Virus record (IMG/VR): IMGVR_UViG_3300028833_000001
Coordinates: 127,171-191,170 of that record
Length of the DNA: 64,000 nucleotides
Strand: one strand, 5' to 3'
Source: a virus
Lineage: Duplodnaviria; Heunggongvirae; Uroviricota; Caudoviricetes
Below the pieces are notes generated by a model. The model saw nothing but the letters and a program-made list of their open reading frames with translations. It was not told the origin of the DNA and did no database searches. This document shows, piece after piece, positions 5,646 through 21,494 of this stretch. Both the position numbers and the translations under genes were made by a program. Each line of letters begins with the position of its first letter. Within the stretch, counting starts at the first letter, position 1.

Positions 5646-5688
5646 ATTCTTCCTAATTTTTGTTTATAAAATATTTTTGGTACATATT

Positions 5689-5705
5689 AGCAAATACCGT
5701 GCCAA
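5689..5705 (-). promoter_or_regulatory. sigma-54-type -24/-12 promoter motif
   Basis: Minus-strand TTGGCACGGTATTTGCT, 44 nt upstream of the sigma-factor ATG at 5645. Confidence 0.5.
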
Positions 5706-5799
5706 AATTTACATTACGCCATAAACCAAAAAAAAACGCTATTAATTTGTAATTAACAATATAATAGCGCTCTACGAAAAAATAAATTAAAATTTGTCA

Positions 5800-6285
5800 C
5801 TAAAAAATATGTTCATACGATATGTTGCTATCAACAAAGGTTATTTTATAGGTAGTTCTTTTCTTATTGTCATCTATGACAAGTAATGACAATTTGTCAG
5901 GTTCAATTTCTCTTACAAGTCTAAATTTCTTGTACTCTGCAAATATGTCAGTCAAGAACTGCCTCAATGTTTGGTTTGGCAGTGACCCTTTCTTTGATGT
6001 AATGGTCACCAAGTTGTCAGCCACGGTTGAATGTTTCAGTTTAACAAGAAACATACGATAAACGATTAGTTTCATATCTTTATTCCAATTCTTAAAATCT
6101 TTGGATTTATTGTCTTGCGGTTCTTTATCATTCTTTTCGCAAATAGTGATATAATCCTCATAGGGGAAATCATTTATCGTATCAACATATAATTCAATTT
6201 CATTTACCATATATGAATAAATTTTAATTTTATTATCAATTATAATATAACACATTTGTATAAAAAAAGAAAGGAGAATCCGCAT
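5800..6285 (-). CDS. hypothetical protein
   Basis: 161-aa ORF. Confidence 0.45.
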   Translation of the reverse strand: MRILLSFFIQMCYIIIDNKIKIYSYMVNEIELYVDTINDFPYEDYITICEKNDKEPQDNKSKDFKNWNKDMKLIVYRMFLVKLKHSTVADNLVTITSKKGSLPNQTLRQFLTDIFAEYKKFRLVREIEPDKLSLLVIDDNKKRTTYKITFVDSNISYEHIF

Positions 6286-6523
6286 TTTAATGCAAATTCT
6301 CCATACTCACAAACACACAATTAAAATTCTTGATTATGACAGGGAATCAAGTACCCTTGTAGCGTTTCGGGAGACAATTTTAATTTGAATGACTATTTTC
6401 GGTATAATAATTCTTAAAAAAAATTTGCTGTACGTCTCCCCAAAGTTTAAATTGTATAACCCTTAATCATCACTACTATAATACAAATTAAAATTGATAA
6501 AAACAAGTTTTTTTTGAAAAAAA

Positions 6524-6913
6524 TTAATTCAATAGAAATTTGTACACAACCTGCCCATACAAGGTTCGTTTTCGCAATACAGCGTAGCAGTTTTTGTCAT
6601 TATAGGTTGTAAGGCAGGCGGATTCTTTATTACCAAGCGGATTGCAACGGTATGTACATTTATCACCTTGTCGGTCAATCCGTGTAATCGGGAATGAATA
6701 GTCAATTAGACCATCAACTCCGTATGTGGAAAACTTCAACGAATCCCCGCAAACAAATGTGGTGTCAATCATAATCCACGCGTCTGAGAGGGCGTATTCC
6801 GTGTCTTCAACCACACACGACTTTTTAACGGGTACAAGCACATCCTGGGCATAAGTCGCGCCAATGATAGATGCGCAAATGAAAATCGCAATAATTGTAA
6901 TAAATTTCTTCAT
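6524..6913 (-). CDS. secreted Cys-rich protein with an N-terminal signal peptide
   Basis: Starts MKKFITIIAIFICASIIGATYAQ and has 8 Cys. Confidence 0.5.
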   Translation of the reverse strand: MKKFITIIAIFICASIIGATYAQDVLVPVKKSCVVEDTEYALSDAWIMIDTTFVCGDSLKFSTYGVDGLIDYSFPITRIDRQGDKCTYRCNPLGNKESACLTTYNDKNCYAVLRKRTLYGQVVYKFLLN

Positions 6914-7123
6914 ACAAATGATTTTATGTTAAACTTTAATTTAATATGTCAAAGAACTTTTTAATTGAGCAGCATAGCAGAGTCGAACTGCCGATTCAAC
7001 CTTGGAAGGGTTGCGTGTTACCACTACACTAATGCTGCTTGTACGCAAATGCGTACCCTACATTTCTGGTGCTTCCAGAGCCAAACCTTTTTAATTATAC
7101 TGATTTTTTTTCAAACAACCAAA

Positions 7124-7360
7124 TTAATATTCATCATCTGCAACCTCAGCGTTTGGTTGGTTGTATGTGTTCTGATTTTTCCAATGCTCTTTCCATAGAT
7201 GCTTCTTACAACCGTCGGAGATGAAGATTACGATGACAAGACTTATTCCGCATAGGATGGTGTACCAAACGGTGGTGAATACTGCGATAGCACCGATTGC
7301 GAGTGTCATAATCACGAATATTAGACCTATGCTTGCCCAAATTGCCTTTTTATTACTCAT
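7124..7360 (-). CDS. small membrane protein
   Basis: Two TM helices. The start was moved to the internal Met to avoid overlap with 7374..7637. Confidence 0.4.
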   Translation of the reverse strand: MSNKKAIWASIGLIFVIMTLAIGAIAVFTTVWYTILCGISLVIVIFISDGCKKHLWKEHWKNQNTYNQPNAEVADDEY

Positions 7361-7373
7361 AGTAACTATTGTT

Positions 7374-7637
7374 TTAATAATTGAAATTAGGATTGTTCTT
7401 GTTGTAGTCAAAGTTCCGCTTTGATGCCCATGCGAATTGGAAGACAGTCTTGATTACATCTTCGGTGGTCACGCGACCTTGTTCCTCTCTAAACCAACGT
7501 TTGTTGGTTTTCCATTGTTCAAGGAGGAAACCAATACCTTCATTCATTGCATTGTCTTCCTTCTTTACCTCTTCAAGCGTATTGATGAGGTTCACTGCGT
7601 CTTTGATTGTTTCGTTGTTGGGATTGATACTTTCCAT
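7374..7637 (-). CDS. hypothetical protein
   Basis: 87-aa ORF. Confidence 0.4.
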   Translation of the reverse strand: MESINPNNETIKDAVNLINTLEEVKKEDNAMNEGIGFLLEQWKTNKRWFREEQGRVTTEDVIKTVFQFAWASKRNFDYNKNNPNFNY

Positions 7638-7865
7638 TGTGTTTCTTTTTTATTTTTAACTATTTTTTATTTTTCACTTATACTGTATCCCGTCAATCCT
7701 TGTCTATCTCCAACCCACCCGATACTCCTTACTACGTGGTAATGTTTTTCAATATAACGCCAAGTATGACCATAGTATTGGCAGGCTTCCTTTTGGGTTT
7801 TGAAAATTTTAATACCCATAATTCTGTTTTTTTTATTATGGGTACGCGGTCGCGTACCCTTGTTA

Positions 7866-8096
7866 TTAATAACGTTTGCTGCGATGATACCAACGCTTAT
7901 GACCGAAGATTCGGTAGATGAGCATCACGATTGCCGCAACGATAATGAACACCAACACGCAGGTGGCAAATGCCGTCCATCCAAGTCCGATGGTTTCAAT
8001 TGCGGCTGCAAGGATAAACAGTTCTCCGATTTCAAAGACCACAAGAGTTGCGGTGATGATTAATGCGATAAAAATTGACGTGATAAATCTTTTCAT
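7866..8096 (-). CDS. small membrane protein
   Basis: 76 aa with two TM helices. The palindrome copy at 7840-7859 lies just downstream. Confidence 0.4.
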   Translation of the reverse strand: MKRFITSIFIALIITATLVVFEIGELFILAAAIETIGLGWTAFATCVLVFIIVAAIVMLIYRIFGHKRWYHRSKRY

Positions 8097-8121
8097 ATCT
8101 CTAAATTTTAATTGGCTTGAC

Positions 8122-8442
8122 TTATAAGTTAATTACAATTTGGTTGTCTTCCATAGGGATAGTGAACAACAAGTTATCACCATCATAGAAACCGTATCCA
8201 TCGATAAGGCTATTATATTGGTCGTTTTTAATAGCCTTCACTTTGATGCCGTTGCTGAACAACAGTTGCATAAATTCATCAGTGAATTGGCTGCAATCGG
8301 TCTTGATAGACATTTCATTTGATTCTCTGAATGCCACCACCTCATCCCCTCTATCATCAACCAAAATAAGGTCGTGAAAATCGCGTTCAAATTTGCAGTT
8401 GTTTGTTTTTATGAAATCCAAAAAAGCGTAAATAAAATACAT
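8122..8442 (-). CDS. hypothetical acidic protein
   Basis: 106-aa ORF. Confidence 0.45.
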   Translation of the reverse strand: MYFIYAFLDFIKTNNCKFERDFHDLILVDDRGDEVVAFRESNEMSIKTDCSQFTDEFMQLLFSNGIKVKAIKNDQYNSLIDGYGFYDGDNLLFTIPMEDNQIVINL

Positions 8443-8461
8443 AATCTTAAAATTTTATTGG

Positions 8462-8968
8462 TTATTTATTAAGTTCGTGAAAAATTGCCGACAGCATATC
8501 AATACTTAAATTAGCAATTGGCTCACTTGTGGTGTATTCAGTACCATCTTCGCCATAGTATCGTACTGACACGCAATATTGATAGTCCTGCCAATACACA
8601 CAATCGTAGTGGTTTCCGTATTCCGATATGGAAATGTCAATGCTATCCTCTCCAACTTTGCTTTTGAGTGCATCGTTGATGATGCTCACAATTGTGAACA
8701 TATTGGCTCTTATGTTGATGTGGGTATTGGCAAACAACGTTTCATACGTTACTCTGCACTCCCAACAATTTTCCAACACATCCTCATCAATTTCATCATA
8801 AGTTTCTTTGAACTCAACTCCGTTGATATAACGGATAACATATTCATCGGTGAATGAGCCGTTTTGGATTTCAAATACGTCACCATTCCATACATCAGCG
8901 GCAAATTGAACATCTCCGTTCTTCTCCACCTCATCGTGGATAACTTTGATTAATTCTTCTTTTGTCAT
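8462..8968 (-). CDS. hypothetical acidic protein
   Basis: 168-aa ORF. The motif at 9002-9018 lies 34 nt upstream. Confidence 0.5.
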   Translation of the reverse strand: MTKEELIKVIHDEVEKNGDVQFAADVWNGDVFEIQNGSFTDEYVIRYINGVEFKETYDEIDEDVLENCWECRVTYETLFANTHINIRANMFTIVSIINDALKSKVGEDSIDISISEYGNHYDCVYWQDYQYCVSVRYYGEDGTEYTTSEPIANLSIDMLSAIFHELNK

Positions 8969-9001
8969 AATTGAAAATCTTAATTTGTTGTTTGCTATAC
9001 C

Positions 9002-9018
9002 TGCAATTATCGTGCCAA
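9002..9018 (-). promoter_or_regulatory. sigma-54-type -24/-12 promoter motif
   Basis: TTGGCACGATAATTGCA, 34 nt upstream of the ATG at 8968. Confidence 0.5.
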
Positions 9019-9021
9019 AAA

Positions 9022-9720
9022 TTAAAACCTACACCATAAGAGACCTTGCACAATTCCATCTTCTGCACCGATGATATATTGAGGTTTATTGATTTTCATA
9101 AAAGAAGCCACAATGTTTTGATAGCGACAAAATTCCAAATCATTATCTCTCAAATCACTAACATCTTTGAGACCCAAGACATCAACATACAGATAACCTT
9201 TAACTTCAACGCAGGATGGATTCTCCAAAGTTTCAAGGTCAATTGGTTCACCGAATAGTTTGTCTATATCCAAAAGGTCGTTATAGGTTAAATCCATTTG
9301 TGATTTCAGTCCATTCTTGGTTGCAAATTTCACAATTTCTTTATAGTTATCAATATTCTCATTGAAATCATTGTAACGTGACGAAACAATTTCCCAAATG
9401 TCACACACATCGTCAAAAATCAATCTATAACTCGCCACTCTATCCTCATTTTCAACCTCAACATAAAATTCGTTATCATCTTTGAAGGTTTTGATTTGCT
9501 TTACTTCTTCACACATTGACGAGGCATATTCAACGTGATTACCGCCATCGTATGCGATATATAAACCATCGTCATACCGCTTGGTTGTGAGATTGATTGT
9601 ACCACCCATTTCTTTAATCATTGTGACAATATCTGAAACAATGTCACATCTCAATGCTAATGTTTTGGAATGATATTCCTCTAAACGAGACTTAATGTCT
9701 TTGTTATTGATTGCCGCCAT
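9022..9720 (-). CDS. hypothetical protein, paralog of 11557..11901 in its C-terminal domain
   Basis: LENPSCVEV...IIGAEDGIVQGLLWCRF compares with LENPTCITT...LIGAENGICKGIMYCVW. Confidence 0.5.
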   Translation of the reverse strand: MAAINNKDIKSRLEEYHSKTLALRCDIVSDIVTMIKEMGGTINLTTKRYDDGLYIAYDGGNHVEYASSMCEEVKQIKTFKDDNEFYVEVENEDRVASYRLIFDDVCDIWEIVSSRYNDFNENIDNYKEIVKFATKNGLKSQMDLTYNDLLDIDKLFGEPIDLETLENPSCVEVKGYLYVDVLGLKDVSDLRDNDLEFCRYQNIVASFMKINKPQYIIGAEDGIVQGLLWCRF

Positions 9721-9777
9721 AATTCTTAATTTTAATTTTATATAAAAATAAAAAGTGTTGTGTTATGTGACATTTTG

Positions 9778-10074
9778 TCAGTTACACCTTGCCAATCTAA
9801 TGACACTATCTTCATAGACGTCAATGATTTCCCAATCCTCATTGTTCATCGTGTCACGCAGAACTGTGTCGGTGGAGATTAGATAGAAGAATATCACTTC
9901 ATCAAAGGTATTGTCACCTGCCAATTTGTCATATTCTTCTTCCGTGCAATAACACATTGTGACACGTTCAGTCTTTCCGTTGTCCTTGAATTTGATTTCA
10001 CAATCAAATGTGAAAGGTGTTGTCGGGGAAGAGATAAGGACATCAGCTAATTTGGTTAAAATTTCTCTATTCAT
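9778..10074 (-). CDS. hypothetical acidic protein
   Basis: 98-aa ORF. Confidence 0.4.
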   Translation of the reverse strand: MNREILTKLADVLISSPTTPFTFDCEIKFKDNGKTERVTMCYCTEEEYDKLAGDNTFDEVIFFYLISTDTVLRDTMNNEDWEIIDVYEDSVIRLARCN

Positions 10075-10086
10075 TGTTTATGGGGT

Positions 10087-10626
10087 TTATTGGTGATTAA
10101 AATTGATGATTTCCTGCGTGTAATCTTCGGCAATTTTGGAAAGTTTGAAATAATCTTCCCACACGTCATCCTCAAAGCTTAACCCATTTACTACACAAGT
10201 TTTGCAGTATTGGGTATCAATGTATTTGACGTGAATGTACTCATCGTGTGTTTCAATTTTGATATTGATGGAATAGCCTTCATTATTGGCTTTATCAACG
10301 ATATTGGCAATTTCATCGCAATCATAAAAACATACATAGTCATTATCGCCAAACAATTCGATTGAGCGCATAAACTCGGTAAATTCTTCGCACGGCATAT
10401 CGCACAATTTTTGAAGAGCATCAACCTGCTCTTCGTTTTTCTGATTGGCAGGTTTTTCTTCACCAACATATTTGAATGACGCACTATAATACTCTCCAAC
10501 GCAGTTTATCTCATCAGCTAATCCATCATAAATAACGTCAAGCGACCCATTATCAATTAGACGTTCTGTATCCGCCAAAGCCTCAGTTACGCGATAATCT
10601 TCCGCTTGAATTTCAACTTTAATCAT
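10087..10626 (-). CDS. hypothetical acidic protein
   Basis: 179-aa ORF with the promoter motif upstream. Confidence 0.5.
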   Translation of the reverse strand: MIKVEIQAEDYRVTEALADTERLIDNGSLDVIYDGLADEINCVGEYYSASFKYVGEEKPANQKNEEQVDALQKLCDMPCEEFTEFMRSIELFGDNDYVCFYDCDEIANIVDKANNEGYSINIKIETHDEYIHVKYIDTQYCKTCVVNGLSFEDDVWEDYFKLSKIAEDYTQEIINFNHQ

Positions 10627-10671
10627 AATTCTAAATTTTAATTGTTACTATTAATTTGTCATTAATCTATA

Positions 10672-10688
10672 TGCAATTATCGTGCCAA
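10672..10688 (-). promoter_or_regulatory. sigma-54-type -24/-12 promoter motif
   Basis: TTGGCACGATAATTGCA, 46 nt upstream of the ATG at 10626. Confidence 0.5.
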
Positions 10689-10691
10689 ACC

Positions 10692-11462
10692 TCACTCTTC
10701 ATACGAAATCACACGAGGCAGTCCGTTCCTTGAAAGATTCTCATAAATTTGAGTTTCATCGGGATTTATATCCTCCGCAAGTGTCAACGCTTCTTCTTCT
10801 GTATGCGCCTCCACGACAAATTCTTCTGTTGTGGTATATTCAACTTTGATTGTGTATTTCTTTTTGGGGGTTTCCAACTCTTCGAAATACTCATTAACTT
10901 CTTCCCGCGACATTTCCGTAAACCACGGCTCAATCTCCTTGTAATTGGTAGGGATGGTATCGGAGACCTCAATCAAATCACCTTTCCACGTTCCAACCAT
11001 TTCCATAAGTGTACCATTGTAGTCTCCACCACCACAACCATTTCCATCAGCAGTAAGAATTGGAAGAGGATGAGCAATTCCGCCCCAACCTTTCATATCG
11101 GGAATTGTCTGCTTTTTGAGGTCAAACCATTCCTTTTTGTCGTGATTGATATAGATGGTATTGTCATCAAGCGCGCGCTTCACAATAGAGATTTCGATTT
11201 CATCTAATGGGTCAACTTTTTCCGCCTTATAGGTCAAATCATAGTAATTATCATTACCGATAACGGCATCGCCATAATCACCTGCCCAAACAAGTCTTTT
11301 AGGGCATTCAATCATTTTGTAGGTAACATTCATCACGAACTTATTACCAATATACGAATGCTCCATTAATTTAGAACCATTATTTGTGTCCCAAGAATCA
11401 AAATATTCTTTTACATTGTCTTTTTTTTCTGTGATGAAACACGCTTTATAATATTGTCCCAT
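10692..11462 (-). CDS. hypothetical protein
   Basis: 256-aa ORF with the promoter motif upstream. Confidence 0.5.
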   Translation of the reverse strand: MGQYYKACFITEKKDNVKEYFDSWDTNNGSKLMEHSYIGNKFVMNVTYKMIECPKRLVWAGDYGDAVIGNDNYYDLTYKAEKVDPLDEIEISIVKRALDDNTIYINHDKKEWFDLKKQTIPDMKGWGGIAHPLPILTADGNGCGGGDYNGTLMEMVGTWKGDLIEVSDTIPTNYKEIEPWFTEMSREEVNEYFEELETPKKKYTIKVEYTTTEEFVVEAHTEEEALTLAEDINPDETQIYENLSRNGLPRVISYEE

Positions 11463-11538
11463 AATTTTAATTTAATTTGTTAATACTAATTTTAATTGTT
11501 TTTAATGAAAGTTGGGTACGCAAACGCGTACCCTATAT

Positions 11539-11555
11539 ACGCAATAATCGTGCCA
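11539..11555 (-). promoter_or_regulatory. sigma-54-type promoter motif followed by the palindromic hairpin
   Basis: TTGGCACGATTATTGCG, with the palindrome GGGTACGCGTTTGCGTACCC immediately downstream (11513-11532). Lies 77 nt upstream of the ATG at 11462. Confidence 0.45.
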
Positions 11556-11556
11556 A

Positions 11557-11901
11557 TTATGCTGACCAAACGCAATACATAATTCCTTTGCAGATTCCGT
11601 TTTCAGCACCAATTAGAAAATCGGGATGGGAAATAGCACCAAGACCAAGAACAATGTCAGAGTATTCGTAACGCTCATCGTAGGTCAATGGAGAGACATA
11701 TTGCGGCAACTCAACAATAATGTATTGGTCTGTTGTGATGCAGGTTGGGTTTTCAAGTGTGTAGCAATCTATGGCTTCGTAACCAATGTCAAATATGAAA
11801 TCAACTTCTTTCCATTCGGAAGATGTTTCGGTTTTGAGATTATTTTTTTCGCAGAAGGCAATGATTTTGTCTTTTACTTCTTGGAATTTTTCACTTGTCA
11901 T
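11557..11901 (-). CDS. hypothetical protein, paralog of the 9022..9720 C-terminal domain
   Basis: Shared C-terminal motif. The start was set to an internal Met to avoid overlap with 11921..12280. Confidence 0.4.
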   Translation of the reverse strand: MTSEKFQEVKDKIIAFCEKNNLKTETSSEWKEVDFIFDIGYEAIDCYTLENPTCITTDQYIIVELPQYVSPLTYDERYEYSDIVLGLGAISHPDFLIGAENGICKGIMYCVWSA

Positions 11902-11920
11902 ATTGTCTATGGATTTAAGG

Positions 11921-12280
11921 TTAGTAAGCGTATTCGGGGATTTTTTCAACGTAATTGTCAATGACTTCTTGAATGTTGTCGCAATAGCATTCATCAACGC
12001 GGTGTTTTAGGTTTCCGTGTGTGGAGACAAACTCCACCTCATAGTAATCCATATAGTTATAAATGACGTGGACGTACCCTTTGAATTTCATACCATTGAC
12101 CTTGAAACGAAGGCAGGGATTGCCTTTTTCGGTCACGGCATACACAAATCCGTGCGCTCCCCAAGACCAATAAACGTGGACATTTGGGTATTTGATTTGG
12201 CTCATAATCGTTGAGGTGATAGTCTTTGCGTCCTCAACTTGACGCTTGGTCTTCGGTGCTACTAACTTGGTTGCTTCCAT
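11921..12280 (-). CDS. hypothetical protein
   Basis: 119-aa ORF with the promoter motif 42 nt upstream. Confidence 0.5.
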   Translation of the reverse strand: MEATKLVAPKTKRQVEDAKTITSTIMSQIKYPNVHVYWSWGAHGFVYAVTEKGNPCLRFKVNGMKFKGYVHVIYNYMDYYEVEFVSTHGNLKHRVDECYCDNIQEVIDNYVEKIPEYAY

Positions 12281-12321
12281 TTCAATAAATTTTAATCGGT
12301 GAATAAATACGTTGTGCTATA

Positions 12322-12338
12322 TGCAAAAAGTGTGCCAA
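12322..12338 (-). promoter_or_regulatory. sigma-54-type -24/-12 promoter motif
   Basis: TTGGCACACTTTTTGCA, preceded by the upstream GTTGTGCTATA element. Confidence 0.5.
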
Positions 12339-12339
12339 A

Positions 12340-12702
12340 CTATTTCACAATAATCATTTCCTCAACGAACTCTAATCCATCAAGTTCTGCGTGTGCAACA
12401 TCGTATGTTTCACCACTATTATAGCTGCAAACTTCAAATCTTAATGTGCCGTCTTGGTCAATGTAAGCACGTTCCAAAGCCACTTCTTCAACCTCATCAA
12501 ATGCGGTGCAGATAACTCTCGGATAAAAGCAACCGTCTTTATCGTTAAAGACATATTCCTTATTAGGCAGGTTTTCAATTTTCGCCACAATATCTTCGCA
12601 GGTCATAGTGTGTGCAGCCACTTTCAAATCAATTGCAGAAATATTGTTCTCTCTTACGAACTTCACAATGGCATCGTTGCTCATTAAAATATCGGTTGTC
12701 AT
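12340..12702 (-). CDS. hypothetical acidic protein
   Basis: 120-aa ORF. Confidence 0.5.
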   Translation of the reverse strand: MTTDILMSNDAIVKFVRENNISAIDLKVAAHTMTCEDIVAKIENLPNKEYVFNDKDGCFYPRVICTAFDEVEEVALERAYIDQDGTLRFEVCSYNSGETYDVAHAELDGLEFVEEMIIVK

Positions 12703-12751
12703 AATCTATAAATTTTAATTGTGAATACTAAATTTGTTTGTACAGCATATA

Positions 12752-12768
12752 TACAAATACCGTGCCAA
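12752..12768 (-). promoter_or_regulatory. sigma-54-type -24/-12 promoter motif
   Basis: TTGGCACGGTATTTGTA, 50 nt upstream of the ATG at 12702. Confidence 0.45.
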
Positions 12769-12844
12769 ACTTATTATATATGGTTTTTATTGATATGACA
12801 TAATGGCACGACAAAATGGCAGACTGACATTTTGGCATATAAAA

Positions 12845-13040
12845 AAATAAAGGGTGTGACGGAGTATACTCTCCTACTCATTTTAAGTGTGACGGAGTAT
12901 ACTCTCCTATCCATTTTACACACATTTAATCCAATGTTCAGCCCTTTTCGGAGCGACCCGCTCCTTACTGCCCCTATGTCCTATGCTATTATGGCGGTTT
13001 CATTGCTGATGATTTAAGTTAGACAATCAGTTTACAATTC
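12845..13040 (-). ncRNA. candidate small non-coding RNA downstream of a perfect-consensus promoter; contains a 2 x 33-bp tandem repeat and a GGAGCG..CGCTCC hairpin, and ends in a T7 run
   Basis: There is no minus-strand ORF of 60 aa or more between the promoter at 13047-13063 and the next promoter at 12752. The repeats GTGTGACGGAGTATACTCTCCTA(C/T)(T/C)CATTTTA lie at 12854-12886 and 12887-12918. Confidence 0.35.
12854..12918. repeat. 33-bp direct tandem repeat, 2 copies, each with an internal GGAG..CTCC hairpin
   Basis: Seen directly in the sequence. Confidence 0.8.
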
Positions 13041-13046
13041 TCTATA

Positions 13047-13063
13047 TGCAAAAAGCGTGCCAA
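13047..13063 (-). promoter_or_regulatory. sigma-54-type promoter motif (perfect consensus) with no protein gene downstream
   Basis: TTGGCACGCTTTTTGCA, part of a ~65-bp cassette repeated at 13955-14030 and 18940-19015. Confidence 0.5.
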
Positions 13064-13107
13064 ACCCATATTAGGAATGGCACGCTGACAACAATTAAAA
13101 TTAAGAT

Positions 13108-13923
13108 TTATTCTTCATACGGGCATTCAGTATCATCCTGCACATTAACGCAGGTGTCAAAACAAACACCATTGGTTTCACCTCTCTTGAATTTATTGAT
13201 TGCCTCTTCAATGGCGGCATCATCATCTCCATCTGCATCAATAACAACTCTTGTTGTCAGTTCAAATGTGACAAGTTTGGCAGTCTTTGGTGACTTTTTG
13301 TCAAAGGTGATGATTGTAGGCTTGTTTTCCTTTTCACACATATCTATTGTGGCATATAACTTGCCGAGGCTATCTTCATAATCACTTCCCTTATACATTT
13401 TAATCTTGTTATCAATGAGGTCAAATTTGAATTTCCAATGAATCTCATATCGTTTTGTCTGTGTGCCATCCCAATAATAACTGATTGGCTTCAAACGGAA
13501 ATGAGTGGTGTTGACATAACTATTAACACGTACATACTCAAACTCCAATGTAGTGCAAGAATGGGTAAAATTCAAATCATCATAGGATATATCGGCAATA
13601 CAACCGATATTAAGTATGTTTTCATTATATCCGTGTATAAACAATGAATATTCTTCATCGTTTCTTAATGCGAGGTTTAATGTCTTATATAGACCACCTT
13701 TGTATTCATTTAAGAGTTTGTATGACGATACCTCGCCAATGCCAGCGATTTCAAGCATAAAACAAATTCCACAACCACGAACATAATCTAATTTTCTTGT
13801 TGATTTGTTAAAGTAAAAATAGCAAGGTCTTTCGTTGAGTTCAACAATTCTTGCTTCACGGACTTCTCTGCCGTTCTCACCTTTGATGTTTGCGTAAAGA
13901 ATAATGTCATTGATGTTTGTCAT
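13108..13923 (-). CDS. hypothetical protein
   Basis: 271-aa ORF. Confidence 0.55.
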   Translation of the reverse strand: MTNINDIILYANIKGENGREVREARIVELNERPCYFYFNKSTRKLDYVRGCGICFMLEIAGIGEVSSYKLLNEYKGGLYKTLNLALRNDEEYSLFIHGYNENILNIGCIADISYDDLNFTHSCTTLEFEYVRVNSYVNTTHFRLKPISYYWDGTQTKRYEIHWKFKFDLIDNKIKMYKGSDYEDSLGKLYATIDMCEKENKPTIITFDKKSPKTAKLVTFELTTRVVIDADGDDDAAIEEAINKFKRGETNGVCFDTCVNVQDDTECPYEE

Positions 13924-13969
13924 ACTTTTTGAATTTTAATTGTAAATATTAATTTGTCACTACCATATA

Positions 13970-13986
13970 TACAAAAAGCGTGCCAA
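13970..13986 (-). promoter_or_regulatory. sigma-54-type -24/-12 promoter motif
   Basis: TTGGCACGCTTTTTGTA, 47 nt upstream of the ATG at 13923. Confidence 0.5.
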
Positions 13987-14027
13987 ACTTATTATGAGTG
14001 ACACGCTGACAACAATTAAAATTAAGA

Positions 14028-14885
14028 TTATTCAATGTATCTCACCTCAACCTTTCCTTCCCAAATGTCATCACCATCCCTCTTATCGTAAATCGTGTAC
14101 TTGGTTGAATTTGAATCTGCGGTTGACATTTCAAATATTTCATCTTCGTCATAAAAAAGGCTAAAAAGGTTATCCACTTTTTTCTTTTCCTCAATCAAGG
14201 CGTCAGAGGCATCGTCATATTCTTCAAAGAGACGAAATGCAAATTCGGGAGAAAAATGCCCTCCGCCATACCACTTTGATGAAAATGCCCAAACCTTTTT
14301 ATGGTTGAACAACGGTTCGTTAGGGTTGTCAATGTTGTACTTGATTTGGTATTGGATAATCATTTCACCGTTGATAATCTTTGCCAAGTGGCAAAGACCA
14401 ACTTTATCGTAAAGATAGGCTACCACTTTTTGTAACTGCTCACAAGAAAGTCTAACACCACTTGTTAGTTTTTTTGCCGCTACAAATGCCATTGTTCTGT
14501 GGAGTTTATGGTTTATAAACTTTTCAATCTCATTGTAATCGTCAATATTCGGGTATTCTTCCGTGTTATACTCACTCACAATGTCATAGATAATGTCATA
14601 GTAAAGGCTTGCCTCAACCACATTTTCGCAGTAGTGTTCAACAATCTTGTGCGCAATAAAATCGTGCAAACTCATCTCAACCTCATCAATTGTGGCTTCG
14701 CATACGTTTTGAATGTAGCACCCATAATCGTTCTCATCAACAACGAAGTCAATAGTGCTTGATGACCCAATTGCATCATCAACTTTCCCTTTCATATAGA
14801 TTTGTGCCAATTTCATCGTTGGATGTACCTCAACCTGCTTTTCGCTGTTTTTCAAATTCGTGAAAGTCAATACATAAATTTTCAT
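14028..14885 (-). CDS. hypothetical protein; its C-terminus resembles that of 19864..20760
   Basis: ...DIWEGKVEVRYIE compares with ...DVWEGRIRKIYVQE. Confidence 0.55.
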   Translation of the reverse strand: MKIYVLTFTNLKNSEKQVEVHPTMKLAQIYMKGKVDDAIGSSSTIDFVVDENDYGCYIQNVCEATIDEVEMSLHDFIAHKIVEHYCENVVEASLYYDIIYDIVSEYNTEEYPNIDDYNEIEKFINHKLHRTMAFVAAKKLTSGVRLSCEQLQKVVAYLYDKVGLCHLAKIINGEMIIQYQIKYNIDNPNEPLFNHKKVWAFSSKWYGGGHFSPEFAFRLFEEYDDASDALIEEKKKVDNLFSLFYDEDEIFEMSTADSNSTKYTIYDKRDGDDIWEGKVEVRYIE

Positions 14886-14932
14886 AATCTATAAATTTTA
14901 ATTTGTAAATAATGAATTAACGTGTTGTGTTA

Positions 14933-14949
14933 TGCAAATAATGTGCCAA
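14933..14949 (-). promoter_or_regulatory. sigma-54-type -24/-12 promoter motif
   Basis: TTGGCACATTATTTGCA, 48 nt upstream of the ATG at 14885. Confidence 0.5.
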
Positions 14950-14952
14950 ATT

Positions 14953-15531
14953 TTAATTCAACCGTGCGACAAGTTTTCCACAATACATCATCACATCACC
15001 ATAGTGGATTTTTTCATCATCGGGCAAGCCACGATACTCTCTGATAGCATCTACCATAGCCTCATCTTTGACAACCTCAGCCATTTTCGGATAAGTCAAA
15101 ATAATAGTGGATGGGTCTGTTTTTTCAAGTGCGTAAGCAAGAGCAGCACCATCGGCACACTCAACAGTATATTCGTGTTCTTCATCATCACCGAAAAAAT
15201 CATTATCGCAGAACATCACACTGTCTTCGCGGACAACACCACTTGCACATTGGTCTGACACAATGTCAGAATTGTCATCATCTGCCAAATTGTCATCATC
15301 ATAGGTTTCCTCAATAAAGTCGGCTGTTGCTTCTCCAAACTGAAATTCTCCGTTAGGGATTTCAACATATTCGGGAAATTCCGATAATGTTTCACAATTC
15401 AGTGCTTCATCTGCCTTGCACAAAGCGTCATACTCACTATCAGCCTTGACGTTCATATACCCATTATAAACGCAGGAGAGGCTTACACGATAGGTCTTTT
15501 GGCTCTTCTTGGTTTCGTTCTTTTTTGCCAT
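14953..15531 (-). CDS. hypothetical acidic protein
   Basis: 192-aa ORF. Confidence 0.5.
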   Translation of the reverse strand: MAKKNETKKSQKTYRVSLSCVYNGYMNVKADSEYDALCKADEALNCETLSEFPEYVEIPNGEFQFGEATADFIEETYDDDNLADDDNSDIVSDQCASGVVREDSVMFCDNDFFGDDEEHEYTVECADGAALAYALEKTDPSTIILTYPKMAEVVKDEAMVDAIREYRGLPDDEKIHYGDVMMYCGKLVARLN

Positions 15532-15564
15532 AATTCTAAAATTTTAATTGTTCACTATACTCTA

Positions 15565-15581
15565 TGCAAATACTATGCCAA
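15565..15581 (-). promoter_or_regulatory. sigma-54-type promoter motif (GC to AT variant at -24: TGGCAT)
   Basis: TTGGCATAGTATTTGCA, 34 nt upstream of the ATG at 15531. Confidence 0.4.
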
Positions 15582-15615
15582 AATTGCAAGATAGCCTTTC
15601 TCTCGGTGCTTATCT

Positions 15616-15882
15616 TTAATTATTTTCAATGTATTCTTTAACCATTTCAATTGCATCATCCAAATTTCGGGCATTTCCGATGGCTTCGTTCTCAATGCTT
15701 GGTTTTGATGAGTAATTGTCTGGCTCAATCACTACCGAACAATATTTATCATCACGGAGTATCACGTTTCCGTATGCAACACATAATTTGTTCCACGCAG
15801 TTACATATACCTTTAACGTGTATATATTGCCGTTTCTTTCAATGCTGATTGGTAAGGATTCAATGCTATTCATATTATTCAC
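15616..15882 (-). CDS. hypothetical protein
   Basis: 88-aa ORF. Confidence 0.4.
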   Translation of the reverse strand: MNNMNSIESLPISIERNGNIYTLKVYVTAWNKLCVAYGNVILRDDKYCSVVIEPDNYSSKPSIENEAIGNARNLDDAIEMVKEYIENN

Positions 15883-15923
15883 AAATCATTTTAATTTTTT
15901 TTTGTCGGTTTTTAAGTTATTAA

Positions 15924-16214
15924 TTATTCTTCATCCCAATTTGGCTCTTCCTCATAGGCATAGGTGCAAAGGTACATAACCTTTTTCGGTATTGTAATCG
16001 TTCTATCATCTCCTATGTCCATTTGTTCCCAAGATACGATATAAACAACCGATATAGAGAGAATTTCAACATTCTCCCCAAGTCTTTGTTTGAAATTCCA
16101 TACAATAGGGTTTTTAACCGCCTCGTTGCCGTAATTTCTGCGGATTTCTTCTTCGTTATGGACATAATAGTCCATCATACACATATCAGTTGCGACTTTC
16201 TTTATGTTTGCCAT
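15924..16214 (-). CDS. hypothetical protein
   Basis: 96-aa ORF. Confidence 0.4.
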   Translation of the reverse strand: MANIKKVATDMCMMDYYVHNEEEIRRNYGNEAVKNPIVWNFKQRLGENVEILSISVVYIVSWEQMDIGDDRTITIPKKVMYLCTYAYEEEPNWDEE

Positions 16215-16224
16215 AATTCTAATT

Positions 16225-16431
16225 TTAATTGTTGATAATATGTGGATATATGAAATTGTTTAAGATTAACCAATCACTTCCGCTATTCGCCAACTCACAA
16301 AATTCTTGCAATGTGAATATGTCACAATACTTTTCATTTGCTAATTCATATCTTTCATTAGATGACATTTTATCCAATTCTTCACGCTCAAAATCATCAG
16401 CACAAAATAATAAAATAATCGTTTTTTCCAT
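16225..16431 (-). CDS. hypothetical acidic protein
   Basis: 68-aa ORF. Confidence 0.35.
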   Translation of the reverse strand: MEKTIILLFCADDFEREELDKMSSNERYELANEKYCDIFTLQEFCELANSGSDWLILNNFIYPHIINN

Positions 16432-16445
16432 ATTTATCCTAAATT

Positions 16446-16865
16446 TTAATAGTTAAACAATTTCAAGGCACAATCCAATTCGTTTTTTTCATTGTTTAAT
16501 ATCAATAATTTGTTTCTCACCTCATTGTAACGTTTTGTTAATTCTTTTTTTATTGCTTTAATCCTGCCATCCTTATATTCATCTTCTTCTTCTTCCAATC
16601 TAACCCAAAAATATCTATTGCATTGGTCAACAATTGAGTATGCTTGCAATTCAAATGTATGTTTGCCGTTCTCCATAGGGTATTCATACAATTTAGCATT
16701 ATCAATATCATAATCTTCGGAATTAATTTTAGTAAAGCAAAGATAATGTTTGATGATTGCGTTAGAACTATTGTCGTTGGCAAGATTGATATTGTATTTG
16801 TTCAATATCTCCAAATCCCAATCAACCCTTTTATTAAACTCTTGTATAAAATTTTCTATTGTCAT
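16446..16865 (-). CDS. hypothetical protein
   Basis: 139-aa ORF with a degenerate motif at 16882-16900. Confidence 0.45.
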   Translation of the reverse strand: MTIENFIQEFNKRVDWDLEILNKYNINLANDNSSNAIIKHYLCFTKINSEDYDIDNAKLYEYPMENGKHTFELQAYSIVDQCNRYFWVRLEEEEDEYKDGRIKAIKKELTKRYNEVRNKLLILNNEKNELDCALKLFNY

Positions 16866-16898
16866 AATTCTAATTATTATATTTCCCCTATATACAAA

Positions 16899-17233
16899 TC
16901 ACCAAATTTTACGAAATTTTGTTGTCCGTATTCTGCGTCCTACACCATAGTTTTCGTTGTGTACTCTTTCATCTTTGCAGATATAGACATCGCCAACAAG
17001 AATGGGATGCCCGAAACGAGGTACATATTCATTGTTCATCAACGATTCTTTGATATGAGGAAACAATTTATAAAAGTTTCCCCATACATTTTTGTTTCGT
17101 TTCAACGATGGCACTCTTATATTATATCCACAACTACAAGGTGTTCCGCTTGTGTTGTAGTAATCTTTGTTGTCCCGTCCTTTCTTTTCGTTATAAAAGA
17201 CAGTAGGATATTTTGCTCTTATTTTCTTTTTCA
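16899..17233 (-). CDS. hypothetical basic protein
   Basis: The track ORF starts with TTG inside the promoter motif, so the start was reset to the first ATG (VMKKKIRAKYP...). Confidence 0.4.
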
Positions 17234-17261
17234 TCACTTCAATTTTTATTCGTTTGCTATT

Positions 17262-17278
17262 ATACAAAAACTATGCCA
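17262..17278 (-). promoter_or_regulatory. sigma-54-type promoter motif (TGGCAT variant)
   Basis: TTGGCATAGTTTTTGTA, ~29 nt upstream of the ATG at 17233. Confidence 0.4.
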
Positions 17279-17555
17279 AAAGTTCCCTCAATGCCGAAAT
17301 AGTTTCATTGAATACTGATATTTTCTCTTCGTCAGTCATTCGGCAAAATGTCTTACCGAATTTGTATTTTGGATTATTATCCATTTGTTCAAGGCAAAGG
17401 TAATAAATAAATGGCGGATATTCACGCTCATTCTTACTCTTCAAAACCTCATCAAGCTCATTCTCCGCCAATGATATTGCCTTGTTGAAACAATCCTCGT
17501 CATTATCCAAATGATAGTTACGGACTAAATGAAATAAACTATTTTCGTTTACCAT
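17271..17555 (-). CDS. hypothetical protein
   Basis: 94-aa ORF. Confidence 0.4.
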   Translation of the reverse strand: MVNENSLFHLVRNYHLDNDEDCFNKAISLAENELDEVLKSKNEREYPPFIYYLCLEQMDNNPKYKFGKTFCRMTDEEKISVFNETISALRELLA

Positions 17556-17556
17556 A

Positions 17557-17787
17557 TTATTTCAGTTTTTCCAATATTTCTTCAATTCTTACACAATCTT
17601 TCGCATCAGCCAACCCATATTTATCCAACCTGCGAAATTCAATCTCATCACCATTGCAGATGTCGGCAACATAATCAACACCCAACGCTTGCGACACCTT
17701 TGAAGATAAAGATTGCATTGCAAGTTCAAGTTCGTTGCTCTTCTGCAAACACTTGGCATACGCTTTATTTATTTCACTCTTTGTCAA
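17557..17787 (-). CDS. hypothetical protein
   Basis: 76-aa ORF. Confidence 0.4.
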   Translation of the reverse strand: MTKSEINKAYAKCLQKSNELELAMQSLSSKVSQALGVDYVADICNGDEIEFRRLDKYGLADAKDCVRIEEILEKLK

Positions 17788-17796
17788 TGTGTTGTG

Positions 17797-18177
17797 TTAT
17801 TTTGTTGTGTACATATCCTCGGTGGCTTCCAATGCAAGCCCCATAGGAATTAAACCATAGTAATCAAAGTGATTGGAATTTAACCAATGTACCCAATTCA
17901 CTGCGTTTCGGTAATTGAAAATAGAGTTGGAATTGATAAATTTGTCATATTCGTATCTCTCCTCCATAGTCATAGATGACATTGGTCGTAGGTAGGGTTT
18001 AACATCAGTTAAATATACGGAATAGCAATCATCGGTTCTAAAAGAAATATTTGGGACTATACTTAAAATGCCTTGAATTGTTTGTGGTGTGTCGTGCCCT
18101 TTTACAAAAATTTTTACCCCATAAGGCAACATTGCACAAATGACTTGTAGTAACAATTCTTTTTCTTCTTGTGTCAT
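17797..18177 (-). CDS. hypothetical protein
   Basis: 126-aa ORF. Confidence 0.45.
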   Translation of the reverse strand: MTQEEKELLLQVICAMLPYGVKIFVKGHDTPQTIQGILSIVPNISFRTDDCYSVYLTDVKPYLRPMSSMTMEERYEYDKFINSNSIFNYRNAVNWVHWLNSNHFDYYGLIPMGLALEATEDMYTTK

Positions 18178-18220
18178 AATAATCTAAATTTTAATTAACG
18201 TTTGTTTTGAATTTTAATTA

Positions 18221-18478
18221 TTACAAATTATCCTCATCAGTTTCATTGTAGTCAGCGAGGCATCGTTCAATTGAAATATGAGCATCGCCAAAGCATATTT
18301 CATCATCCTTAAACGTTTCCCAATCGGTGATTGCCGTTTCTTTTATGTCCTCCACAACGTCATACAAATAATCTTTCGCAATGGTTTTTGCCTCTTCGTT
18401 GTCACATCCGAGACTTGTTTCGGCAAAGAAAAAAATCTCATCTTTTACCAATTCAATTTGTCTTTTTGTCAGTTCCAT
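18221..18478 (-). CDS. small hyper-acidic protein
   Basis: 85 aa with more than 30% D/E. Confidence 0.45.
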   Translation of the reverse strand: MELTKRQIELVKDEIFFFAETSLGCDNEEAKTIAKDYLYDVVEDIKETAITDWETFKDDEICFGDAHISIERCLADYNETDEDNL

Positions 18479-18496
18479 ATCATTTGTGTTTTTGGT

Positions 18497-18922
18497 TTAC
18501 AAATATTGCAGGATGGTGATGATTGCCTCACGCTTTTGGTCCTCATCATAAATCAAAATCTCCTCCGCATCCTTATCTGTGTATGGATTTCCGCTCCAAA
18601 AATAGATGTCAGCTCCGTTAGTAGTAACATTGGTAATTGTCGCTCCGTTGCATTTGATACCAAAATCTTCAACTGACAAATTGTCAGTATCAAACTCATC
18701 GAATTGGTCTCTCAATTCACATTCCAAGTTGAAAAGGCTTCGTTCATCGTCCCAAATTTCCATCAAGTCATCTCTTGTCTCCGCATCCTCAACGGAGCAG
18801 AGTTCAACAAAATCAAATTCAGCAGGGATGTTCATCATCTCAAATTTGCTTTTTATTTCAGCAATGGAGTCACCACTAAATTTCTTTGCCACTCTAAAAG
18901 TTACGATTGCTTGTTTTTCCAT
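18497..18922 (-). CDS. hypothetical acidic protein
   Basis: 141-aa ORF with the promoter motif 35 nt upstream. Confidence 0.5.
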   Translation of the reverse strand: MEKQAIVTFRVAKKFSGDSIAEIKSKFEMMNIPAEFDFVELCSVEDAETRDDLMEIWDDERSLFNLECELRDQFDEFDTDNLSVEDFGIKCNGATITNVTTNGADIYFWSGNPYTDKDAEEILIYDEDQKREAIITILQYL

Positions 18923-18956
18923 ACCATAAATTTTAATTGGTTAGACGCACCATATA

Positions 18957-18973
18957 TACAAAAAGCGTGCCAA
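18957..18973 (-). promoter_or_regulatory. sigma-54-type -24/-12 promoter motif within a repeated cassette
   Basis: TTGGCACGCTTTTTGTA. The flanking AATTGGTTAGACGC and CACGCTGACAACAATTAAAATTAAGATT are shared with other copies. Confidence 0.5.
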
Positions 18974-19013
18974 ACTTATAAAGCAGGCACGCTGACAACA
19001 ATTAAAATTAAGA

Positions 19014-19418
19014 TTATGATAAATTGATAGTATCTAAATCAATATTACAAATGTAGTCAAAATCTTCAAACCAATCCGATTTATGGTTGTAAACGGTCGG
19101 GTGCGTGTATGGTTTCATATCATCATTTAAGTAACAATATTGATAATAGTAACATTTGCCGTCTCTTGATGGTTTGGAATCAAGTATTGCTATATAATAT
19201 TGGTAATTTCGTAATGGTTCAAATGGATTGTTCGTATCACTAATATTGAAGCATCCATAAACTCCACCAATCTTCAATTGGTCTTTGTTATCATTTTTTT
19301 TCTTCTTGTCATTTATGTTTTCAACAATACATTCAATTGATTTGAATATGAAGAAAGAGAAAACAAGAACGACAAAATTGTAAATGATAAACGATAGTAA
19401 TGTAGTAAACGTAATCAT
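19014..19418 (-). CDS. membrane-anchored protein, tandem paralog of 19430..19852
   Basis: N-terminal TM helix, then IGGVYG...YYIAILDSKPSRDGKCYYYQY...DIDLDTINLS. Confidence 0.5.
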   Translation of the reverse strand: MITFTTLLSFIIYNFVVLVFSFFIFKSIECIVENINDKKKKNDNKDQLKIGGVYGCFNISDTNNPFEPLRNYQYYIAILDSKPSRDGKCYYYQYCYLNDDMKPYTHPTVYNHKSDWFEDFDYICNIDLDTINLS

Positions 19419-19429
19419 AAGTTTTTTGA

Positions 19430-19852
19430 TTATGAAACTTTTATGCTATTCAAGTCAATATCCTTTACATATTCCCAATTATCAAAATAATTTGTTTGAT
19501 TACTATAAATCATAGTGTCACTATAACTGCTATATGGTGACATATTGTCATTTAGAAAGACATATTGGCAGTATTCACAATGTCCATCCCTTGATGGTTT
19601 TATGTCAAGGATTGCCACATAATAACCATAGTCGTGAATAGGGGAAAATGGGTCATTATTATCACCATAAAATCGTCTTTTTCCATATATTCCACCAATA
19701 TTCAATGATGACTTGACTTTTTTCTCTTTTTGTATCTTCTTATTGCTCCTAATATTATCAATGATGTGGCGGAAAAATTTGAAAAATGTGATTGAAAACA
19801 CACTAATGAAGATTGTGAATGAAATAAATGATGGTATATTAAAGGTAATCAT
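19430..19852 (-). CDS. membrane-anchored protein, tandem paralog of 19014..19418
   Basis: IGGIYG...YYVAILDIKPSRDGHCEYCQY...DIDLNSIKVS. The start was set to the internal Met to avoid overlap. Confidence 0.5.
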   Translation of the reverse strand: MITFNIPSFISFTIFISVFSITFFKFFRHIIDNIRSNKKIQKEKKVKSSLNIGGIYGKRRFYGDNNDPFSPIHDYGYYVAILDIKPSRDGHCEYCQYVFLNDNMSPYSSYSDTMIYSNQTNYFDNWEYVKDIDLNSIKVS

Positions 19853-19863
19853 AATTTTAATTT

Positions 19864-20760: not shown

Positions 20761-20811
20761 AATCTTATATTTTTAATTGTTGATGATTTGAATTACTTGT
20801 GTTGTGCTATA

Positions 20812-20828: not shown

Positions 20829-20829
20829 A

Positions 20830-21481: not shown

Positions 21482-21494
21482 AATGTTATTAATT

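Follow-up and report, generated by a model that had tools for sequence, protein, structure and literature searches.

A conserved candidate small-RNA gene with a Pro-Pro-stop mini-ORF behind a sigma-54-type promoter in uncultured phages

Results

A promoter without a protein gene

The DNA analyzed here, referred to below as the window, is a 64,000-nucleotide (nt) stretch of an uncultured virus (IMG/VR record IMGVR_UViG_3300028833_000001, positions 127,171 to 191,170). On its minus strand, between the genes for a 271-amino-acid (271-aa) and a 120-aa protein, it carries an element of ~190 nt that we interpret as a probable small-RNA gene, headed by a mini-ORF that ends in Pro-Pro-stop (Table 1). 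The element stands behind one of 18 copies of a 22-nt motif, TTTGGCACG-N4-TTGCATATA, all of which lie on the minus strand and of which 0.17 would be expected in the window by chance. At 17 of these copies an ATG within 90 nt opens an open reading frame (ORF) of 75-298 aa. At the orphan copy the ATG at +39 (13003) opens four codons only, making this the sole motif copy without a protein ORF, and the next motif copy downstream then precedes the 120-aa ORF. More generally, the motif precedes almost every small gene in the 20-kb cluster and recurs many times on all related contigs. A first reading of the locus made from its letters alone (the sequence-only reading) had described a perfect-consensus promoter followed by no protein gene before the next promoter, in a region where every other promoter drives a protein gene. 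This is borne out, with the limits of the two promoters at 13064-13043 and 12769-12748.

Read from the promoter, the element begins with a promoter/leader/ATG module like that of the protein genes, continues with 3-6 codons, an 18-nt block, hairpin H1, a linker, hairpin H2 and one or two two-tier hairpins, and ends in a U7-9 tract. The -24/-12 spacing of the promoter would place the transcription start near 13036. Gene starts in the cluster have no Shine-Dalgarno sequence and share an A/T-rich leader, (GTCTAAC)CAATTAAAATT...ATG, to which the leader of the element is homologous; in the L013c, L016 and L026 copies of the element described below, the leader before the mini-ORF is the canonical CAATTAATAATTTAAATTATG. 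The promoter-to-ATG distance is also that of a protein gene, +39 at the orphan promoter and mostly +25 to +47, up to +73, for the protein genes.

Table 1. Features of the element and of the surrounding window
Feature	Position in window	Strand	Description
28-nt cassette AATCTTAATTTTAATTGTTGTCAGCGTG	13081-13108	minus	Begins at the stop codon of the upstream 271-aa gene
Other window copies of the cassette	14002-14029, 18988-19015	minus	Identical to the first
Single dyads	13078-13090, 13999-14011 and others
Orphan promoter motif TTTGGCACGCTTTTTGCATATA	13043-13064	minus	22 nt; 0 mismatches to the in-window consensus
5' leader, GTCTAAC..TTAAAT	13004-13036	minus	~33 nt; homologous by alignment to neighboring protein-gene leaders (GTCTAACCAATTAAAATT..ATG)
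Mini-ORF, ATG AAA CCG CCA TAA TAG	12986-13003	minus	MKPP and two stops
18-nt block TAATAGCATAGGACATAG	12974-12991	minus	Near-invariant in alignments; starts with the two stop codons
Hairpin H1, GGAGCG-GGT-CGCTCC	12950-12964	minus	6-bp stem, 3-nt loop
Linker GAAAAGGGCTGAAC	12936-12949	minus	Invariant in alignment
Hairpin H2, ACATT-GGATTA-AATGT	12922-12937	minus	Predicted in every copy
Two tandem 33-nt units	12854-12918	minus	Tandem Repeats Finder: period 33, 2.0 copies, 93% matches
Unit cores TAGGAGAGTATACTCC	12909-12894, 12876-12861	minus	Each followed by the tail GTCACAC
U-tract region CCTTTATTTTTTT	12841-12853	minus	T7 at 12847-12841; putative tail of an intrinsic terminator and RNA 3' end
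Dyad array of the next promoter (12769-12748)	12796-12837	minus	Downstream boundary, outside the RNA
Dyad arrays upstream of three promoters	12796-12837, 22086-22120, 25164-25192
Promoter motif sites	5685-25123	minus	18 sites, e.g. 12748-12769, 13966-13987, 18953-18974, 22046-22067
Hairpins GGTACGC-N4-GCGTACC	3822-3839, 4334-4351, 7040-7057, 7841-7858, 11515-11532, 23889-23906, 24691-24708		Seven copies
Sigma-70-family sigma factor gene	4767-5645	minus	Sigma70_r2 and r4
tRNA-Gly gene	6967-7038		ARAGORN
IS-type transposase-like ORF	43098-44369	plus	phrog_506, E = 5e-60
ClpB-like protein gene	51813-54362	minus	849 aa, double AAA+

A family of 14 copies

We found no DNA similarity between positions 11500-14900 and INPHARED phages, and searches of IMG/VR with the 271-aa neighbor protein and with the exact window unit gave no match. 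Homologs of the downstream 120-aa protein, at 64-74% identity, are present on short contigs, and the regions upstream of them align with the whole non-coding stretch; further copies were gathered by conserved-block scans and then with an nhmmer profile. The resulting family consists of 14 distinct copies on related metagenomic and viral contigs: the window copy (the only one in the window), three copies on the 14-kb contig L013 (L013a-c), two (L025 and L026) on a 116-kb viral contig, and those at L007, L009 (with L008), L011, L012, L016, L017, L018 and L020. A match in a Pseudobdellovibrionaceae metagenome-assembled genome fell by chance in coding sequence and was discarded, and loci L027-L033 are chance matches as well.

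The window element is 72-76% identical to its relatives with gaps counted, compared with 32-48% at the four-fold-degenerate sites of the adjacent gene, and pairwise identities among copies range from 72 to 86%. Near-invariant blocks include CCN-CCN-TAR-TAG-CATAGGACATAG, CCGAAAAGGGCTGAAC and a 16-nt core, TAGGAGAGTRTACTCC. The ORFs listed across the stretch, one of 49 aa on the minus strand and one of 61 aa on the plus strand, are not conserved: their frames are broken in relatives by 1-, 10- and 33-nt indels, and in copy L018 none of the frames stays open for more than 28 aa. On neither strand did we find, across the relatives, a conserved ORF longer than the mini-ORF. The H1 types and unit tails are assorted among the copies like modules, a pattern that suggests recombination between related phages at the conserved blocks.

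RNA structure and substitution pattern

H1 occurs in six sequence variants, all of them hairpins (GGAGCG/CGCUCC, GGAGCG/UGCUCC, GGCA/UGCC, GGGAU/AUCCC, GGCAU/AUGCC and GGCAU/GUGCC), and two of its pairs are changed on both sides across copies. The hairpin had been noticed earlier as GGAGCG-ACCC-GCTCC; it is present and splits slightly differently, as GGAGCG-GGT-CGCTCC at 12964-12950. H2 is ACAUU/AGUGU in most copies. In L013b, where it is AUACU-GAU-AGUAU, both sides of one pair and a single side of another have changed, and in L025 the stem is kept with a different loop, UAGU. Shortly ahead of the T-run, CCCTTT (12854-12849) is complementary to the AAAGGG of the linker (12947-12942), and the AAAGGG/CCCUUU closing helix that the two could form is found in the minimum-energy folds of most copies, is 85% paired across copies and shows no covariation.

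The tandem repeat of two 33-nt units, each with a GGAG..CTCC hairpin, had also been noted and is indeed present in the window, but relatives carry either one or two units and the repeat itself is not a conserved feature. Each window unit contains GGAG-AGTATA-CTCC, and the unit core is found nowhere else in the window. The conserved part of the units is the 16-nt core, UAGGAGAGURUACUCC, on a two-tier hairpin. The inner GGAG/CUCC stem of this hairpin never varies, and its outer stems differ by copy (GUGUG/CACAC, UGUAG/CUACA, GGGUAGG/CCUACCC, GGUA/UACC, GCGGG/CCUGC and GUGUAG/UUACAC).

A formal pairing count that took in H1, H2, the inner stems and the closing helix found a standard pair in 96% of cells; sliding the 3' partners by 1-3 columns lowered this to 40-64%. 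In three pairs both sides have changed, a count that 4 of 500 shuffles also attained, and none of the 500 attained the covariation score of 0.086 (versus 0.033). The comparison of folds across relatives that the sequence-only reading had proposed thus yields compensatory changes in both H1 and H2. G.U pairs occur in H1 of L009, in H2, and in L013b, L013c, L018, L020 and L026, and each would be an A.C mismatch on the other strand. Since several stems pass through G.U on the promoter strand only, the selected molecule appears to be RNA from that strand. The 3' domain of the window copy folds better than its shuffles (z = -2.6), with values from -2.75 to 0.0 and a mean of ~-1.75 over 13 copies.

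Two other interpretations of the structure were rejected. A CsrA-like or anti-Shine-Dalgarno sponge built on UAGGA/AGGAG is unsupported, the motif in the H1 loop being lost in four H1 variants, and CC-GNNAA-GG as a boxB-like pentaloop would have a stem of 2-3 bp only and competes with H1.

A mini-ORF ending in Pro-Pro-stop

All 14 copies carry a mini-ORF composed of an ATG at the usual promoter distance, 0-3 codons, Pro-Pro and two stops, which would encode the peptides MKPP, MPP, MRPP, MIRPP and MTIRPP. The Pro codons are CCG CCA, CCA CCT, CCA CCA, CCG CCT or CCT CCG, such that third positions alone vary within an otherwise almost invariant stretch, and the ATG is found at four different positions across the copies, all in frame. 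Together, the wobble-only variation and the in-frame movement of the start codon are fair, if small-sample, evidence for translation of the mini-ORF and for selection of Pro-Pro-stop, and we consider the translation probable. A conserved small ORF was the alternative explanation that the sequence-only reading had itself named; the mini-ORF covers 15-24 of ~190 nt and therefore does not explain the region.

The 3' end

As described earlier, the stretch ends in CACCCTTTATTTTTTTAT, with T7 at 12847-12841, and each of the 14 copies has a U7-9 tract after its last unit. The long-range closing helix, which is AAAGGG/CCCUUU or, in L013a and L017, AAAGUGUAG/CUACACUUU, encloses the whole 3' domain in 11 of 13 minimum-energy folds, ending 0-4 nt before the U-tract. 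Transcription probably terminates at this tract. Canonical hairpin-plus-T8 terminators are found elsewhere in the genome, for example upstream of 23223. The dyad array of the next promoter begins directly after the U-tract, and in those relatives with downstream sequence the family copies are likewise followed by an array of this kind. The downstream gene differs between family copies and always has its own promoter, an indication that the RNA element is independent of it.

Sigma-54-type promoters and their dyads

The orphan promoter (13064-13043) reads TT TGGCACG CTTT TTGCA TATA and conforms to the sigma-54 sequence TGGCACG-N4-TTGCW, with GG at 13061/13060 and GC at 13049/13048. These doublets are exactly one helical turn apart, the canonical -24/-12 spacing. 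Among the 18 sites the -12 element is TTGC in 13, TTGT in four and TTGA in one. A motif equal to the sigma-54 -24/-12 consensus is uncommon in phages, and on sequence grounds these promoters may depend on sigma-54. The "perfect consensus" reported earlier stands, with zero mismatches, and is that of sigma-54. A sigma-70-type reading was rejected on account of the spacing, and by inspection the motif does not fit the Bacteroidota -33/-7 promoter pattern.

Upstream of some copies of TGGCACG-N4-TTGC(A/T) there are dyad arrays, where the enhancer sites of sigma-54 (RpoN) promoters would be. The dyads, TGNCA-N3-TGNCA, number 20 sites in the window (40 matches, both strands) against ~1.3 matches per shuffled window, are ~15-fold enriched, and all but one lie within the promoter-rich 5.8-25.2 kb. 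Upstream of the orphan promoter there is a single dyad only (TGTCA-N3-TGCCA, 13090-13078). We regard the dyads as candidate enhancer or operator sites for a DNA-binding protein.

The phage precedent is one sigma-54-like promoter described for Pseudomonas phage YuA (PMC10914365), whereas here 18 copies within 20 kb serve nearly every small gene; in the literature we found no report of a phage using a sigma-54-type motif at such scale. In two stretches of the cultured Bacteroides phage DAC22 that we checked, 99 kb in total, the motif is absent and no enhancer-binding ATPase or RpoN gene was seen. The sole Sigma54_activat match among ~35 larger ORFs tested in the window is a secondary AAA+ match inside the ClpB-like protein, arising from its D2 domain. 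The sigma-70-family sigma factor gene of the phage itself lies behind a TGGCAC-type promoter, which suggests a transcription cascade.

Repeated cassettes and hairpins

The 28-nt cassette upstream of the orphan promoter has three identical copies in the window, each beginning at the stop codon of the gene upstream and lying just before a zero-mismatch promoter, and also precedes the family copies in those relatives with upstream sequence, being diverged in L025 and L026. Its sequence reads as the mRNA leader consensus ACAATTAAAATT in reverse complement, and its GCGTGCCA is able to pair with the TGGCACGC of the promoter, so that a read-through transcript would fold the 3' end of a gene onto the next promoter and leader. 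Independent assemblies of the phage and its relatives (L001-L012) repeatedly break at the promoter cassette adjoining the RNA gene (window 12990-13110). Fragmentation of short-read assemblies at such repeated cassettes would explain why the relatives are so fragmented, and the region is probably under-represented in databases. A further repeated element, the hairpin GGTACGC-N4-GCGTACC, has seven copies in the window where none is expected. Some directly precede or follow promoters, and one adjoins the tRNA-Gly gene. The hairpin may represent a second terminator class, or serve in processing or recognition.

Genome context

The window is part of a 361,445-bp contig, and all genes at ~5-25 kb are on the minus strand, as is the RNA element. 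It encodes a phage-type tail fiber, helicase and amidase in addition to the sigma factor. The helicase is closest (32% identity) to that of the 170-180-kb Bacteroides thetaiotaomicron DAC/SJC phages, followed by Chryseobacterium, Flavobacterium and Salinibacter phages, and these best matches suggest a jumbo phage of a Bacteroidota host. The proteins neighboring the element have no PHROG or Pfam function. An insertion sequence (IS)-type transposase-like ORF lies on the plus strand.

In searches of the whole window, ARAGORN identified a single tRNA or tmRNA, tRNA-Gly, which is also the only gathering-level match in Rfam 15; neither search detects the element. A permissive Rfam scan of 12780-13080 returned three families that fell far short of their thresholds, the best being SNORD101, a eukaryotic snoRNA (22.5 bits versus a threshold of 47; E = 0.03), and the others DUF805b and Clostridiales-2. 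Within the window, the best antisense match is a stretch of 12 nt at 456-467 on the plus strand, a perfect complement of the invariant GGCUGAACAUUG; about one such match is expected by chance and it is probably meaningless.

Discussion

We propose, with a probability of roughly 0.55, that the element is a stand-alone small-RNA gene of ~190 nt that runs from ~13036 to ~12843 on the minus strand, ends in an intrinsic terminator and carries a Pro-Pro-stop mini-ORF. We hold with considerable confidence that it is a real, selected and discrete RNA element. Its substitution pattern points to selection both on the promoter-strand RNA and on the Pro-Pro-stop frame. The candidate small non-coding RNA of the sequence-only reading therefore survives in its core, backed by 14 copies, their conservation, compensatory and G.U changes and the U-tract, with a transcript predicted from these features; "non-coding" applies to it only in part, given the mini-ORF. 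The family it represents is conserved and previously undescribed, as a kind it is still a phage small RNA, and it spans a clade of uncultured jumbo phages, probably of Bacteroidota hosts.

Several observations weigh against this proposal. Shuffled sequence folds as well as the full 196-nt stretch (z = -0.08). The covariation rests on few independent events, and the inner GGAG/CUCC stems of the units and the closing helix never covary, leaving these helices neither supported nor contradicted by it. A simple terminator scan calls no terminator here, the nearest simple stem having 4 bp and lying 9 nt from the T-run. The wobble-only variation of the mini-ORF rests on two codons. No RpoN or enhancer-binding protein gene was seen among the products of the ~35 larger window ORFs. 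Targets complementary to the RNA, which had been suggested as a check, are not enriched in the 64-kb window, where 32 complementary 10-mers compare with 37 expected by chance and two complementary 12-mers are at chance level. Finally, L007 and L011 are 0.85 identical in the RNA and 0.72 in the coding sequence of the adjacent 120-aa gene, and L007 and L009 are 0.75 identical in the RNA and 0.86 in that coding sequence. This disagreement between RNA and neighbor-gene trees indicates that modules are exchanged between phages, which weakens the argument from conservation somewhat, though not that from compensatory change.

How such an RNA might work can be sketched from its layout. Transcription would start at the sigma-54-type -24/-12 promoter and end at the U-tract, with the AAAGGG/CCCUUU helix or its equivalent bringing the base of the 3' domain next to that tract. 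A ribosome would load on the canonical leader, translate M(K/R)PP and linger, because ribosomes are slow both to form Pro-Pro peptide bonds and to terminate after proline. The paused ribosome would occupy, protect and stabilize the 5' end of the RNA, and the structured 3' two-thirds would act in trans, its hairpin cores and invariant single-stranded segments binding a protein or RNA partner. The presence of several copies per genome would favor a stoichiometric role, as a decoy or sponge, over a catalytic one. In its details this trans-acting, ribosome-occupied mechanism is tentative. A bolder version is doubtful: a new kind of multi-copy, ribosome-engaging phage RNA, made from the consensus and presumably strong promoter, whose minigene parks or traps host ribosomes, or senses EF-P or release-factor capacity, whose 3' domain provides a second activity, and which operates in a sigma-54-type regime with dyad enhancers.

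The mini-ORF and the RNA that it heads can be compared with several known systems. Phage small regulatory RNAs with their own promoter and intrinsic terminator form a general class, and the element resembles them as a ~190-nt unit within a gene cluster that has conserved hairpins, conserved single-stranded segments and a 3' end at a U-tract. It differs from them in being multi-copy within a genome, in the conserved mini-ORF at its start, in its sigma-54-type promoter, in having no Rfam match at gathering threshold and in showing no target complementarity above chance in the window. Phage lambda bar exemplifies minigenes that trap peptidyl-tRNA, and its likeness to the element lies in a phage ORF of a few codons with a good initiation region and stops directly after, with AGA next to the start in several of our copies. 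Here, by contrast, the last two sense codons are always Pro-Pro and the ORF heads a long conserved structured RNA; any Pro codon is used, which argues that no single tRNA is targeted. Minigenes of 2-8 codons can trap peptidyl-tRNA (PMC2490762).

Stalling at C-terminal prolines, as in TnaC and at the PP-stop of cytomegalovirus UL4 uORF2, offers another parallel, namely a short upstream ORF that ends in Pro-Pro, often after Arg or Lys, with the stop directly following. The peptides predicted here are 3-6 aa long, however, too short for the exit-tunnel constriction, and no regulated ORF follows on the same transcript. In RAPP-like arrest peptides the documented cores are R-(A/G)-P-P (PMC10951233, PMC12992588). 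The motif in our family is (M/K/R)-P-P-stop without Ala or Gly between Arg/Lys and Pro-Pro, which sets it apart from the RAPP definition (PMC12992588).

Among other explanations of the locus, the one that fares best, although we judge it unlikely, is a cis-acting leader. The RNA would modify its own polymerase as a nut/put-like antiterminator, or act with its mini-ORF as an attenuator, and so regulate read-through into the downstream same-strand genes. The element resembles the antitermination RNAs lambda nut (boxA/boxB) and HK022 put in that a structured RNA near the promoter comes directly after a stop codon and precedes a putative terminator and genes of the same strand. Promoter (a presumably strong one), structured RNA, putative terminator and genes are indeed in the appropriate order on one strand, and the double stop would keep ribosomes off the structured part. 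H1 keeps its shape while its sequence varies, uniform within a genome and different between genomes, as is boxB, and there are mutually exclusive pairings, of AAAGGG/CCCUUU with GGGUAGG/CCUACCC and of H2 with the outer stem of unit 1. Yet the downstream genes all have a full promoter and dyad array of their own, and the identity of the gene changes from copy to copy. The mini-ORF ends ~20 nt upstream of H1, with ~140 nt between its stop and the U-tract, and a ribosome paused there would be out of contact with the terminator. These distances, with the separately promoted and variable downstream gene, distinguish the arrangement from a leader-peptide attenuator. Unlike nut and put, moreover, the element has several copies per genome, no sequence match to them and no identified N-like or other known partner protein.

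We think it improbable that the RNA is a decoy or antitoxin mimic whose tandem units neutralize a defense protein by imitating a host RNA, for example a CRISPR repeat or a ToxI-like type III antitoxin. The ~33-nt units in one or two copies, the predicted, abundant-looking transcript with its own promoter and terminator, and the several copies per genome would all suit such a role. However, the units are arranged head to tail with a period equal to the unit length of 33 nt and no spacers, which makes the array not CRISPR-like. A ToxI-like type III antitoxin would share the tandem units and the putative terminator, but one copy has a single unit. The proteins encoded downstream lack Pfam and PHROG matches, including any to ToxN/AbiQ, and their genes are separately promoted and vary from copy to copy. 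Such a role would also not account for the conserved 5' half (mini-ORF, 18-mer, H1 and linker), and a search of 185,579 bacterial and archaeal genomes with the pattern AAGGGCTGAACATTNGATTA, which covers the linker and H2 and not the unit core, gave one chance match.

Equally hard to sustain is a function at the level of DNA, with hairpins and repeats serving as protein-binding sites (enhancers, operators or insulators), or with the locus as a mobile promoter-terminator cassette resembling a miniature inverted-repeat transposable element (MITE), and the transcript being incidental. The region does lie 85-160 bp upstream of the next sigma-54-type promoter, the usual enhancer position; the unit core in the window holds a perfect 10-bp palindrome, GAGTATACTC; and the element is multi-copy, flanked by repeated cassettes and phylogenetically discordant with the neighboring gene. 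As DNA, however, the palindrome is broken in 13 of the 14 copies (GAGTGTACTC), and as RNA it remains self-complementary through G.U; stems in general are kept via G.U intermediates on one strand only. The dyad array between element and promoter is a much better enhancer candidate, and neither wobble-only Pro variation nor in-frame movement of the ATG would be expected of a DNA site. Least credible of all is a decayed gene, with promoter, leader and ATG as remnants and the rest drifting spacer, or an unrecognized small protein on either strand, for although the 5' module is homologous to that of neighboring protein genes and mechanical ORFs of 49 and 61 aa overlap the stretch, its 14 copies are conserved far above synonymous-site identity with invariant blocks of 14-26 nt, indels break the frames on both strands (at most 28 aa open in L018), and pairwise identities of 72-86% argue against very recent duplicates.

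Almost nothing is known of RNA-based regulation in the large uncultured phages of Bacteroidota, and the element described here provides a concrete and testable family whose ends are defined and for which there are a structure model and 14 natural variants. The fusion of a Pro-Pro-stop mini-ORF to a structured RNA is an unusual combination. The family also exposes an early-transcription organization in which sigma-54-consensus promoters, often preceded by dyad arrays, serve nearly all small genes individually. A phage-wide sigma-54-type regime with its own dyad enhancers would, if true, be a strategy undescribed for phages at this scale, and sigma-54 dependence of these promoters would mean that phages can take over the enhancer-dependent sigma-54 pathway wholesale, where so far an isolated promoter in YuA has been reported.

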